Shown piece by piece: positions 4,262 through 50,142 of a stretch of 64,000 nucleotides of DNA. The first letter of the stretch is position 1; each line of letters begins with the position of its first letter. The notes under the pieces were generated by a model. The model was given only the letters and a program-made list of their open reading frames with translations. It was not told the DNA's origin and ran no database searches. The translations under genes and the position numbers were made by a program. The DNA comes from a virus (lineage: Duplodnaviria > Caudoviricetes), in the IMG/VR virus record IMGVR_UViG_3300006805_000023; one strand, written 5' to 3'.

Positions 4262-4501
4262 GGGGCCGAACATCGGCGGAAGCGGTTGCTCAGGCGCGAT
4301 CTTGTACCACCTTTCAAGGTCCAACTGAGCCCCTTCGCTCCAACGGACCTTGAGCTTACGAGCGTTGGCAACGACCGGCGTGGACACGATCTCAAGATCA
4401 ACGCTGGTGCTAGGATACCAGATAGCGTGTGTCTCTGGCTTGACGACTTTGGGAGCGAAGATGGCTCCGAACATGGTGGCGAGGAATCCGCGTCGTTTCA
4501 T
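4250..4501 (-). CDS. Twin-arginine-leader protein carrying a T4 gp23-type major capsid fragment (AxARKLKxxWS)
   Basis: MKRRGFLATMFGAIFAP leader; VDLEIVSTPVVANARKLKVRWSEGAQLDL resembles T4 gp23 FRIDKQVIEAKSRQLKAAYSIELAQDL. Confidence 0.75.
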   Translation of the reverse strand: MKRRGFLATMFGAIFAPKVVKPETHAIWYPSTSVDLEIVSTPVVANARKLKVRWSEGAQLDLERWYKIAPEQPLPPMFGPSKG

Positions 4502-4909: not shown

Positions 4910-5245
4910 TCAACCGAAGTTGTCTTCCAGGTAGGTTGAAAGACCAGCCCTAGCCTCGATGGCGTCCTCGTCCTGGGAGGCGATCGAGGCCGCTCCGTCG
5001 GCCCCGTAGCCCTTGCGCCGTGCGGTCCTGGAGGCAAAGCCCCACATCACGTCGCGCAGGTCCTGGGGAGTTGGGGCTAGGGCCAGCTTGCGGATGTCTC
5101 TTTGTGGCCACTGGCCCTCCTTGAAGTACTCGATAGCAGCCTTGCGCATCTTCTCGAAATCGGACTTCGTGTCCGTGGGCTGAGGAGCCGGGTCTTCTCC
5201 AGCCAGGAGGGTTTCAACGAGGGCGTCGGGTGTCTGTGGTCTCAT
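4910..5245 (-). CDS. Hypothetical protein, possible internal head protein
   Basis: N-terminal DALVETLLAGE; TAATTAT motif 9 nt upstream. Confidence 0.7.
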   Translation of the reverse strand: MRPQTPDALVETLLAGEDPAPQPTDTKSDFEKMRKAAIEYFKEGQWPQRDIRKLALAPTPQDLRDVMWGFASRTARRKGYGADGAASIASQDEDAIEARAGLSTYLEDNFG

Positions 5246-5258
5246 GAGTGTTCAATAA

Positions 5259-5531
5259 TTAACGGTAAGCTCTGCGGTGGGCTTCGGCCATCCTGCCTCC
5301 GGCGTGGATCGCGGCAAGGTGAGGCGGGAGAGGGTAGGCGGGGACGTAGCTGGGGCACTCTGACCCGGCCATAGGCTCTTGACCGGGGCGCATCGAGGTG
5401 CCGCACTGGAAGAACATAAACGACCACACCAAATCCCGACCGCACCAATCAGGAACCAGTCTGGACTCGCGCTTCACGCCAGCCTTGCAGTAAGGGCAGC
5501 GCTTCGGTGTGGCTGGCTTGCGTGGGGTCAT
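5259..5531 (-). CDS. Small Cys-rich (CxxC) protein
   Basis: CPYC...C...C...C; ATGA-coupled to the upstream gene. Confidence 0.65.
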   Translation of the reverse strand: MTPRKPATPKRCPYCKAGVKRESRLVPDWCGRDLVWSFMFFQCGTSMRPGQEPMAGSECPSYVPAYPLPPHLAAIHAGGRMAEAHRRAYR

Positions 5532-11289: not shown

Positions 11290-12594
11290 ATGGACCTCTT
11301 GCCGAACCTCCCGCCCAACCTCCCACCGCCGGAACTCTCAACCCCAGAGCAGAGAAAGGCAGCCTTCATGCGTGCCATGGGGGAGCTGCACAAGCACCAG
11401 AAGGCCATTGTGGGTCTGACCAACCACGTCCGGCTCCTGCAGACCCTCGCCAAGGGCACCATGAAGGAGCGCATGCTGGTGGCTCTCCAAAACGCTGGCC
11501 CTCTTTATCAAACGCTTTGCCCACGCAAGTACCGCGACATCCCGACGCACGCTTCGCCGCGCAACCTGCTCATTATGTGCGTCCTTGCAGCTCTCGTGTT
11601 CAGGGACTATGGGGCCGTCAACGGCTTTGACCTGAAGAACATGCGGCCCGAGCAATACGCGGACCTCATGAAGCGGTCGGATTCGATGTCGCATGGTTAC
11701 GCGAAGGAGAACAGCCTGAGGCTGTGGCGTGTGATGGGCGACATGATCGAGAATGACTCGCCAACCTACTACCTCGACCAGGAGGCTTCCGAGGAAATGC
11801 TGGAGACCCAGTGTGACGACCTCAAGATGACGTGGGACGACTTCGACTGGCCTCACCCGGTCTTCATGTTGATGCCTCCGATTGGCTTGTACAAGAACAG
11901 CCCGCTGCTCATTCTGGCACACCGTGACGACCAGTACGTGACCTTCACAGGTCTGACAGAGGAGATGGTGGACTACAACCAGAAGCTGTTCGCCACCGAG
12001 TTTCCGATCAAGAGCGAGATCGGAGCTTCGGTCAAGAGCTTGATGGACGCCAAATACCACAGGCTCATAGGAGGAGACAAGATCCGGGACATGGAGGACG
12101 GCCTCAGGGATTTCATCAACAAGACCATGCAGGTGTGCGTCAACGCCCTGCTGGCCATGGTGGCGGAGCCCAAGTTTGAGGAGCTGGAGAAGTCAGGCGC
12201 GCAACCACGCCCAGCCAGTCAAGAGCGCCGTGCGCGTGACCCGTCTGCCCTCTGGAATCCGACCTTCTTCAAGATGGAACGGACCAGACAGGCGTCGGAG
12301 GGGAGTAGCGATGGTAAGGGCGGTCACCGACGCCCCCACCCACGGCGAGCGCACTGGAAGAGCGTCTGGCTGGACGGCAGCGAGGACACCCAACTGGAAC
12401 CGGGGAAACGTGCCAGGCACACCCAAGACCAGCGGGTCGCCCATTGGGTCACGAGCATTGAAGGTGACGTCGTGACCCTCAAAAACGCCGCTGGTGAGGA
12501 GAAGTCCGTGCACCGCTCCGAGGTGAAGCCGTCCAAGGTCAAGTTCCGGTGGATCAAACGCCGGATCGTCGGGCTCAAGAACCACCTAGCTTGA
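11290..12594 (+). CDS. Conserved phage protein with a C-terminal PHxRRxHW motif
   Basis: GGHRRPHPRRAHWKSVW...RWIK C-terminus typical of a phage family of unknown function. Confidence 0.85.
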   Translation: MDLLPNLPPNLPPPELSTPEQRKAAFMRAMGELHKHQKAIVGLTNHVRLLQTLAKGTMKERMLVALQNAGPLYQTLCPRKYRDIPTHASPRNLLIMCVLAALVFRDYGAVNGFDLKNMRPEQYADLMKRSDSMSHGYAKENSLRLWRVMGDMIENDSPTYYLDQEASEEMLETQCDDLKMTWDDFDWPHPVFMLMPPIGLYKNSPLLILAHRDDQYVTFTGLTEEMVDYNQKLFATEFPIKSEIGASVKSLMDAKYHRLIGGDKIRDMEDGLRDFINKTMQVCVNALLAMVAEPKFEELEKSGAQPRPASQERRARDPSALWNPTFFKMERTRQASEGSSDGKGGHRRPHPRRAHWKSVWLDGSEDTQLEPGKRARHTQDQRVAHWVTSIEGDVVTLKNAAGEEKSVHRSEVKPSKVKFRWIKRRIVGLKNHLA

Positions 12595-30550: not shown

Positions 30551-30562
30551 ATACCTAGTTAT
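30551..30562. promoter_or_regulatory. Back-to-back class-2 motifs (TAGGTAT minus, TAGTTAT plus)
   Basis: The two motifs overlap at CTAG; 4 nt to ATG 30546 and 6 nt to ATG 30569. Confidence 0.7.
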
Positions 30563-39600: not shown

Positions 39601-40618
39601 CCCGAACCAGTTCTCCAGCAGCTCCAGCTCCTCGCGGTCGTCGGCCAGCTCTGCCTCTTCGAACTCCTCGTCCAGCTCAACGCCATCGTCTGCCTCTTCG
39701 AATTCTTCGTCCAGTTCTTCTCGTAACAGCTCCTCGTCCAGCTCCAGCCAGGAACTGTTCTTGCTGCTCGGTGGCTCGCTTCTCACTCTGGGAGACGGGG
39801 TGACGCCGCTTAGGTTGTACGCTCCCCCTGAGTCATCGTCGGCCAGTTCTGCCAGCTCGGCTAGTTCTGCCTCCTCCAACTCAAGCTCTAGCTCTAGCCC
39901 CTCGTCGAACTCCTCATCGAGCTCAAGCTCAACACCGTCGTCGGCGTCTTCAAACTCCAGCTCTAGCAGTTCCACACCATCGTCTGTCTCCTCCCAGAGC
40001 AGTGCATCCTCGAACTCCTCCAGCTCATCCTCCAGTCCGTCGTCGGCCTCCTCGAACTCCTCCAGCTCATCCTCCAGTCCGTCGTCGGCCTCCTCGAACA
40101 GCTCCTCCAGTTCTTCGAGTTCCTCGCACCATGCTACCAGCTACGGTAACACACTTGGAACAGGCAACCGCACTAGCTTTATCACCACTCAAACCAACAC
40201 AATCAATGGTGGTGATGCCAGCAGTTTGGTTGATGGCAACACAGCCTCTGGCGGGGGCTTGCTTCTGACACTCGGTTCCCCGGCCTACATTCGGTTTGAC
40301 CTTGGTAGCGCCCGTTGGATTGACCAGGTGCGCTGGATACAGTCGAGTGCTGCCTCAAGTGGTACCTGGCGCTGGGAAGGGTCAAGCGACACTATCAACT
40401 GGACCGTCCTCTCGGCCAACTTCACCCTGGGTGGCTCCACAACACAGACTCATGACCTTAACATCTGGCAGGACGCATTCAGGTACTACCGGATCATTCA
40501 GGTGAGCGGCTCGATCACGAGCACGACAATCCGTGAAGTTGAGTTCCAGATCGACGCCTCTTCCGGGATCGACTACTCCAGCTCATCCAGCTCCTCCAGC
40601 AGCTCATCTTCACCCTAA
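36620..40618 (+). CDS. Large baseplate wedge/tail protein with poly-Ser tracts and C-terminal discoidin (F5/8C)-like domain
   Basis: LFNLLP...RGTHSGLYLLG N-terminus; SLVDGN...YIRFDLG...WRWEGSSD...FRYYRI. Confidence 0.8.
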   Translation: MRTLDYQIATLEDGALFNLLPRTVRSRDGGAVRALVRLLESRHNEMAEVYRQLPRLQDPTKAGAFAPEDFREDPVLYAQWKELRERLSPLSAPEQLLLDHLAELVPVSVRARSWEQQSLRALAGACGDTLPQGPFSNYWRDFVASATLRHRLRGTHSGLYLLGAVLGIVDIKITELWTSYDIKQPETPQQTGTSRLVLVPDEYPLWGEASSLLERGNELGSETSFQSPQVPYGTPGYSPLIQDDGGSTVTATFPRLSPSPSSPYSFRKIVNQNNPFGNFIGEVRGALEPGTYLSDVDAVGRGVIRFPYLALTGFATFQLSEHLTKTITVAISGTSTQSMALTGPTSKVRFKSSRYNASYVVDPLEMSRFYLPELVVLIPDATPDDGTLSRTVPARPVTGSLDGTRIIAPADLKVMSLGGMNETAGVARALAQGQLPMTREVNQELFGVSSKDLVRYAPYKPLTSVVLADANGLCWELTVDQSGVVLLSESNKAATTAPVQNDNGTMVEWAVSVVGKFVPRATQLSRNDVVFLSSDSFSGYVYLSQGGLFSSRVQGEFITEVLHGDGTPNEQNLRALYHNVVENPPEHLRGVMSEDAFAVSQDTGVLFQTRPEDSVQASPLLRDRVPSGIAANLIPGDEGFSAERSMGSLTGRTACNDIRNRYVGIEATLVQPVPTGDATRNDGLTYDYPIEFLTYYGFWHWRDRLTNAPYKSHYLYGSASPTCGGTLVTESLGGDGPNEGSHIPPQGDFPEVSSTGFRVSPNSQVTLRDLTTEWRREFHQSAEALATAASVVDSGGQAKISALAEQPVGSLFTITSPSGNYTTSGAFHLGGGVLDLTFIATEDVELYRRRGELELSSERQVVLNIRSTDVIKTSWRIGYTNSSGRHLLRFGQVVPGNQYEATFTVPDGSYSAWADSSGGQHQLSLRIDVPTGTLPTWPELAGQQLMGGGERDAIEVTIVDPGEHYYDYGDGRSSLDPLLSGKKWFRGGDWAGGAPNQFSSSSSSSRSSASSASSNSSSSSTPSSASSNSSSSSSRNSSSSSSSQELFLLLGGSLLTLGDGVTPLRLYAPPESSSASSASSASSASSNSSSSSSPSSNSSSSSSSTPSSASSNSSSSSSTPSSVSSQSSASSNSSSSSSSPSSASSNSSSSSSSPSSASSNSSSSSSSSSHHATSYGNTLGTGNRTSFITTQTNTINGGDASSLVDGNTASGGGLLLTLGSPAYIRFDLGSARWIDQVRWIQSSAASSGTWRWEGSSDTINWTVLSANFTLGGSTTQTHDLNIWQDAFRYYRIIQVSGSITSTTIREVEFQIDASSGIDYSSSSSSSSSSSSP
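39614..40612 (+). repeat. Three poly-Ser tracts (about 39614-39748, 39833-40126, 40577-40612)
   Basis: Directly visible in the translation. Confidence 0.9.
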
Positions 40619-40627
40619 GTATTTCAC

Positions 40628-49836: not shown

Positions 49837-50133
49837 ATGCAAGACCTAGACGCTAAATGCCGCGAGATCCTCAAAGAGGAGCTAAAAAGACTGCTCGATG
49901 AGCACCGTGAGGTCCTTGATTCACTGCCTGATCGGTATCTCGAAGAACTAACCCTGTTGCGCACACTGAGCACAGTGTCGCTCACTGAAGCTCTCAAGTT
50001 TGACTTTGGGGATGCTGCTGGGCTGGCGTTCGTGTTGCAGCACGGAGGGCACGATTTTCCGGCGCTCCAGTTCATCACCAGACTAGACAAAGCGGTTGGT
50101 AGGCGGTTGACGGAGCTGATAGAGAAGCTCTAG
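49837..50133 (+). CDS. Hypothetical protein (98 aa)
   Basis: Operon spacing. Confidence 0.7.
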   Translation: MQDLDAKCREILKEELKRLLDEHREVLDSLPDRYLEELTLLRTLSTVSLTEALKFDFGDAAGLAFVLQHGGHDFPALQFITRLDKAVGRRLTELIEKL

Positions 50134-50142
50134 GTATAAGCA

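Follow-up and report, generated by a model that had tools for sequence, protein, structure and literature searches.

A twin-arginine-leader mini-protein with a capsid-derived segment in a large uncultured T4-like phage, a candidate envelope-directed mimic of the capsid edge

The window analysed here is a 64-kb stretch of DNA from a large uncultured T4-like phage, in which a DnaB-like helicase, a tail-fibre-like protein and a second helicase are encoded; genes for sheath, baseplate and ribonucleotide reductase lie close by, past its end. Three small open reading frames (ORFs) on the minus strand, linked by two ATGA overlaps, form the cassette considered in this study: P0004 (4611-4895; 94 aa), the Cys-rich P0003 (4498-4614; 38 aa), which overlaps both of its neighbours, and P0001 (4250-4501; 83 aa). 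P0001 is composed of a leader (residues 1-24, 4430-4501), a linker, a capsid-derived segment (residues 33-75, 4277-4405, as delimited by the match of a hidden Markov model, HMM) and a short Pro-rich tail. P0004 is built alike, with a Tat-type leader and a first capsid segment. Codon usage is coding-like in frame in all three ORFs, with negative scores out of frame, and in P0001 it is so over the entire ORF length (+0.34 in frame vs -0.23 and -0.58 out of frame; GC3 0.67). The P0001 gene was also called on public contigs that are 49 kb and 218 kb long, and at its 3' end a convergent gene meets or overlaps the ORF. Small accessory genes surround the cassette, and at a distance of 7 kb lies a gene for an AcrVA2-like protein of 434 aa (PF26125, precomputed Pfam; 11290-12594, plus strand), which is kept in a related phage (L103:1-669). 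The cassette region gave no match to cultured phages in blastn, and the exact start of the P0001 gene was not found in viral and JGI contig collections.

Upstream of the cassette a gene of 111 aa is located on the same strand (4910-5261), with the word TAATTAT 9 nt before its ATG. Over both strands of the window the general form of this word, TANNTAT, occurs at 15 sites vs about 48 expected from base composition, and 14 of these stand 4-10 nt upstream of an ORF start (e.g., 5255-5261, minus, the site of the 111-aa gene; 50131-50137, plus; 30551-30557, minus; 40616-40622, plus), including ORFs of 961 and 966 aa, both large genes of unknown function. Such strong avoidance together with placement at ORF starts suggests a promoter with near-leaderless transcripts or a start-site signal. 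With both strands scanned, no TANNTAT was found before P0001, P0003 or P0004. Because the word precedes the 111-aa gene and none precedes the three small genes, the cassette probably shares a transcript with this upstream gene, whose TAATTAT would be the likely start of that transcript.

According to the original prediction the 83-aa paralogue holds a second capsid fragment at 4304-4402, and these coordinates are exact: residues 34-66 of P0001 are encoded from 4402 down to 4304. The only Pfam family matched by P0001 is Gp23 (PF07068; E 0.05, profile positions 132-165), and at 13.4 bits the match remains under the cut-off of 24.4 bits. A custom HMM was built from 40 full-length gp23-type capsid proteins, none of which had been chosen via P0001. 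Against it P0001 reached 20.5 bits at HMM positions 285-327 of 534, and when all six frames of the window were searched (2075 pieces), just the ORFs of P0001 (E 7.5e-5) and P0004 (E 1.3e-11) were detected. The profile search proposed with the prediction is therefore significant, and none of 5000 shuffles of P0001 exceeded 4.1 bits. These profile matches, with no shuffle near the real score, rule out a chance match and establish from sequence that the segment is capsid-derived. Single-sequence searches missed the capsid: phmmer of P0001 against the PDB returned no gp23 or other capsid match, and tblastn against phages gave non-significant matches only, 5 of 19 in capsid genes. The similarity is thus visible only with profiles. 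No further capsid pieces occur in any frame of the window, and the HK97-type fold is incomplete in P0001.

Word-index searches near the length of P0001 and P0004 returned the queries alone, and a search for longer proteins returned nothing, so that an exhaustive search was needed. Among 1.84 billion representatives this search uncovered seven small proteins homologous to P0001 (85-133 aa, E 2e-6 to 7e-4). All eight members of the resulting family share one plan, consisting of an M-x-R-R-x-F-[LI] leader, a hydrophobic stretch, an Ala-rich site, a variable linker, the capsid core and the start of a helix. The core reads [LI]-x-S-x-P-[IV]-V-A-x-x-R-K-L-K-A-x-W-[ST]-x-E-x-x-Q-D-L, and in all eight M1, R3, R4 and F6 of the leader as well as S40, P42, R48, L50, W54 and L62 of the segment (numbering of P0001) are invariant. 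P0001 fits this plan of 83-133 aa with its leader, S-x-P-[IV]-[VI], R-[KR]-L-[KR]-x-x-W and [DE]-L, and is the most divergent member; it is devoid of the Cys in W-T-C-E, and its spine helix is interrupted at the start by Pro residues. Pfam Gp23 matches seven of the eight at E <= 1 (best 1.2e-25). Since every homologue pairs the leader with the segment, which is better conserved than any other part, a leader kept without the segment does not occur among them. On this evidence, and with its coding-like codon usage and its orthologues retained in two related phages of different gene order, P0001 is an intact, selected gene of an undescribed family of mini-proteins, and full-text literature searches retrieved no papers on Tat-leader capsid-fragment proteins.

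The family is rare. Scanning IMG/VR with the family alignment yielded, as the best 80 loci, full-length capsid genes throughout (456-624 aa where complete), whose capsid segment shows 42-57% identity to the family across about 50 residues; in bacterial or archaeal metagenome-assembled genomes the same scan found three loci, again all full-length capsid genes. With P0001 as query no close relative was found in IMG/VR. A degenerate DNA pattern of leader plus core recovered true members in one of two matches in IMG/VR and in two of 38 in metagenomes. Among 50,697 cultured phage records no small homologue was seen, and the family pattern met none in those bacterial and archaeal genomes that it reached.

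The leader of P0001, M-K-R-R-G-F-L, agrees with the motif R-R-x-F-[LI], which in the family is often followed by K or R and of which R3, R4 and F6 belong to the invariant residues; R-R-x-F is also present in three first-fragment proteins. The bacterial Tat consensus is S/T-R-R-x-F-L-K. After the motif 13 uncharged residues follow, then K-V-V-K-P-E-T-H-A, in which T-H-A (24-26) is a possible signal-peptidase site; most members possess the hydrophobic stretch and Ala-rich x-A sites, and homologues show clearer A-x-A sites. P0001 thus resembles Tat signal peptides in R-R-G-F-L at residues 3-7 and possibly also in its uncharged stretch, its basic stretch and the candidate small-x-Ala site at 24-26, and differs from Tat proteins in its passenger, a virus-derived peptide of about 55 residues vs a cofactor enzyme. 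A length of 13 uncharged residues is the lower limit for a Tat h-region. Curated Tat profiles (PF10518, TIGR01409) did not match P0001; PF10518, the Pfam TAT_signal, matched one of the eight members (E 0.16), and NCBIfam matched none of them. Short signal profiles are often lost to speed filters. Within the window this leader was seen, as judged by eye, only in the two capsid-fragment ORFs. Tat targeting of P0001 is a well-motivated prediction, on the assumption that the host has a Tat system, and the destination indicated by the invariant twin arginines is the membrane or periplasm, not the cytoplasm. Small accessory proteins directed to the cell envelope are known from T4-type phages, and Spackle and Imm, small periplasmic superinfection-exclusion proteins of T4, are comparable to P0001 in this respect; unlike P0001 they are not known to be capsid-derived and carry other targeting signals, and a sequence relation to P0001 is not expected.

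Compared with the PDB, the family profile matched T4 gp23 (6uzc) at residues 244-296 (E 4.9e-6), with a weaker match to gp24. This stretch includes the conserved T4-type segment that had been quoted in the original prediction. Within it lie a beta-strand and the short acidic helix of the P domain, which is located where capsomers meet at the quasi-threefold; one of the clusters of head-length mutations also falls in this stretch. By profile alignment residue n of P0001 equals gp23 residue n+216 (R48 = R264, L50 = L266, W54 = Y270), and residues 33-75 are homologous to about 249-291 of gp23, which with its vertex paralogue gp24 belongs to PF07068 and has the HK97 fold (PDB 6uzc, 5vf3, 1yue). 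The match takes in the strand or strands that follow the linker of the insertion domain, the short acidic helix of the P domain and also the spine helix in its first turn. In contrast to gp23, P0001 holds only about 45 of about 500 residues and is without A domain, P loop, full spine helix and N-terminal propeptide; its twin-arginine leader replaces everything upstream, and shell formation is impossible. Residue V52 (4346-4348, minus) corresponds to gp23 Ala268, and most family members have Ala at this position; A268V is a classic T4 head-length mutation, and the correspondence may be coincidence.

P0004 matches Pfam Gp23 at positions 9-47 (E 5.9e-9) and 6uzc at residues 96-133, so that P0001 and P0004 carry different, non-overlapping capsid segments, which stand in gp23 order. 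Published structural work on gp23 assigned residues 66-105 to the N-terminal region, 132-160 to linker 1 of the insertion domain, His282 and Met284 to the P domain, and 292, 306 and 307 to the spine helix (PMC9546572). The short P-domain helix is negatively charged and lies near the quasi-threefold axes, where it makes charge contacts to neighbouring capsomers; A268, A275, D285 and D287 form one head-length cluster, whereas a second length cluster (A66D, A94V, G97S) is situated in the N-terminal region, probably touching the scaffolding core (PMC9546572). By the alignment, the P0001 segment spans the first of these clusters and the P0004 segment begins in the second. As Met98, in the first segment, clusters spatially with His282 and Met284 at the end of the second (PMC9546572), the two types of segment are neighbours in the folded capsid protein. 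Mapping of both fragments on gp23, which had been suggested as a check, accordingly places them side by side on the basis of the published structure and the profile alignment, and the earlier notion of two subunit interfaces is a fair structural description, since the first segment falls where the N-terminal arm ends and on the part of the chain that comes next, and the second at the short P-domain helix near the quasi-threefold inter-capsomer contact (PMC9546572).

Structure prediction was of low confidence. An AlphaFold2 model of P0001, computed from a shallow family alignment (mean pLDDT 63), shows a leader helix, a hairpin (36-44/47-54) and a helix (56-66). The model of P0005, a homologue of 133 aa (L005:606-1007), contains P0001-like elements and a long helix (70-96), with pLDDT of 63-66 across both models. 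The predicted secondary structure tentatively agrees with the mapping on gp23. With Foldseek the P0005 model found no match in the PDB, and in the ESM Atlas only a weak structural match, to a 74-aa Gp23 cluster, was obtained. When mature P0004 and mature P0001 were modelled as a complex the score was 0.01, which was taken as evidence neither for nor against binding.

The paralogy of the 83-aa and 94-aa proteins, already part of the original prediction, is borne out by their leaders, which are identical in 58% of 24 aa and in 48 of 72 bases. Besides the type of leader, both have size class, operon and capsid origin in common, and they differ in the segment carried and in conservation between related phages. 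Compared with L103, a contig of 138 kb, identities amount to 68% for P0004, 89% for P0003 and 35% for P0001, with neighbouring genes at 27-76%. In L103 the P0004 orthologue is parted from the orthologues of P0003 and P0001 by a 2-kb block on the opposite strand, and in L009 a 95-aa gene lies between the latter two. L093, a 75-kb IMG/VR record of an unrelated large phage, encodes a first-fragment protein with a leader of this type directly before the second-fragment protein P0011, and also a full capsid gene. The best BLAST match of this first-fragment protein is the capsid protein of the same phage, with the unusual word F-P-V-I-x-N-M-S in common; the word L-x-A-M-Y-N-I is found both in P0011 and in that capsid protein. 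A tree computed from the 58-column segment placed P0011 with the L093 capsid protein (SH-like support 0.85), and P0001 and P0006 joined them (0.88). Because the alignment is short, this link of fragments to the capsid protein of their own lineage is suggestive only. In P0005 both fragments are present in one chain in permuted order: the leader is followed by the second fragment with a longer piece of the spine helix, and then by the first fragment. The pair in L093, the presence of both in L103 and the fusion in P0005 suggest that the two fragments work as one module. Second-fragment genes without an adjacent first-fragment gene were found in L007/L008, L010, L104, L114 and L131; the pair is therefore common, not obligatory.

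We tentatively favour, with slightly less than even confidence, the reading that P0001 is a protein of a Tat-leader family which is directed by its leader to the periplasm and acts there as a mimic of the capsid edge. The leader would bring P0001 to the inner membrane and, via Tat, to the periplasm, where the capsid-derived module could form a free-standing mimic of the P-domain edge at the quasi-threefold contact. By strand or helix complementation this mimic might bind the usual recogniser of that capsid surface, and P0004 would supply the neighbouring capsid surface. We know of no process that needs a capsid piece in the periplasm, which counts against this reading. P0001 and P0004 together may reproduce the surfaces of the N-arm and the short P helix, where two of the three clusters of T4 head-length mutations are located, and it is conceivable, if improbable, that both are trans-acting regulators via Tat. 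In that case they would either tether or cap the edges of the capsomer lattice at the membrane and control head assembly or size, or a capsid-binding host factor would be 'hitch-hiked' out of the cytoplasm.

If the proteins are exported or membrane-targeted, phages would repeatedly have reused the most conserved edge of the head shell as a small envelope-directed tool, a use of capsid protein for which no published description was found. As the segment sets capsomer contacts and head length in T4, the natural peptides of the family could serve as probes for capsid assembly, for capsid sensing by defence systems and for viral use of the Tat pathway. For annotation, the family explains some of the short phage ORFs with 'Gp23' Pfam matches, which are not truncated capsid genes.

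Alternatively, P0001 could modulate the assembly or size of the phage's own head, with the leader serving only as an anchor on the cytoplasmic side of the inner membrane and the capsid piece docking on capsid protein or scaffold, at those quasi-threefold and N-arm surfaces that set the angles between capsomers. T4-type proheads start on the inner membrane (PMC9546572). The fragments agree in position with two of the three clusters of T4 head-length mutations (A268/A275/D285/D287 and A94/G97) and group with the capsid protein of their own lineage, and the cassette follows a TANNTAT-bearing gene, the same word also preceding the 961- and 966-aa genes. However, a family so rare and absent from all 50,697 cultured phage records is therefore not a core assembly part, the pair is facultative, and the positive-inside rule would put the C-terminal part of the protein outside the cell. 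We hold a role of this kind to be unlikely.

The idea of the original prediction that the pair may cover two different sensors would make the two mini-proteins a cytoplasmic decoy, in which the two most conserved gp23 segments are presented to sensors of host defence such as Lit-like proteases and blunt or divert them; as a variant, the Tat leader might carry a bound sensor out of the cytoplasm. Capsid protein is a known defence trigger (for example, PMC9712102). The genes stand among small accessory genes near the AcrVA2-like gene, and orthologues of the second fragment diverge fast (35%, vs the 68% and 89% of the two neighbouring genes). The first fragment, in P0004, overlaps the Gol region of T4 gp23 (around residues 93-122), the activator of the Lit protease. 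P0001 itself has no Gol-type segment, as it aligns to gp23 244-296 only and the Gol-equivalent segment is in P0004, and we know of no sensor for the second gp23 segment, which counts against a decoy. Known capsid sensors act in the cytoplasm. The idea is weakened by the Tat-type leader, whose invariant RR would have no role in a purely cytoplasmic decoy, and by the expectation that a free activating segment triggers a sensor instead of blocking it; moreover, no defence-related family match was found in the searches, PADLOC lying outside them. A decoy thus appears quite improbable. That the fragments are the functionless, frameshift-split remnant of a duplicated capsid gene, which was tested because their gp23 order and their spacing of about 129 codons vs 123 Pfam profile positions resemble the gp23 profile, is very improbable and largely refuted by codon usage, which is coding-like in the three ORFs, by an own Met and conserved leader in each ORF, by lone fragments and by intact rearranged orthologues, the architecture being kept in orthologues and homologues even where genes are 2 kb apart or solitary, and it is at odds also with the two ATGA overlaps, the convergent gene at the 3' end of P0001 and the lack of capsid similarity between or after the fragments in any frame.

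Some further features of these genomes were recorded. The 22 residues that follow the capsid segment of P0004 (4614-4679, minus) are kept in the L103 orthologue, ending in R-W-K-I-T, and P0004 therefore has a second functional part unlike capsid protein. P0003 obtained no family match in family searches and no match in a pattern search; across three related phages its orthologues (L103:9885-10031, L009:3884-4003) are 89% identical and contain the motif C-R-C-G-x-x-T-C-I-C. Its gene always precedes the second-fragment gene, immediately so in the window and in L103 and with the 95-aa gene between them in L009, and in the latter two phages its orthologue is preceded by a Cys/His-rich protein of 74 aa that has a hydrophobic stretch at its C-terminus. 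According to precomputed Pfam matches, the gene for the large subunit of ribonucleotide reductase (L101:2762-6055, about 14-17 kb past the window end) contains an intein that includes a LAGLIDADG endonuclease domain. The P0005 gene adjoins a metallophosphatase gene, and the capsid-fragment genes of L093 (L093:314-11681) and L131 (L131:3119-9678) lie inside arrays of 13 and 21 tRNA genes, respectively, each with a radical-SAM-like gene alongside.
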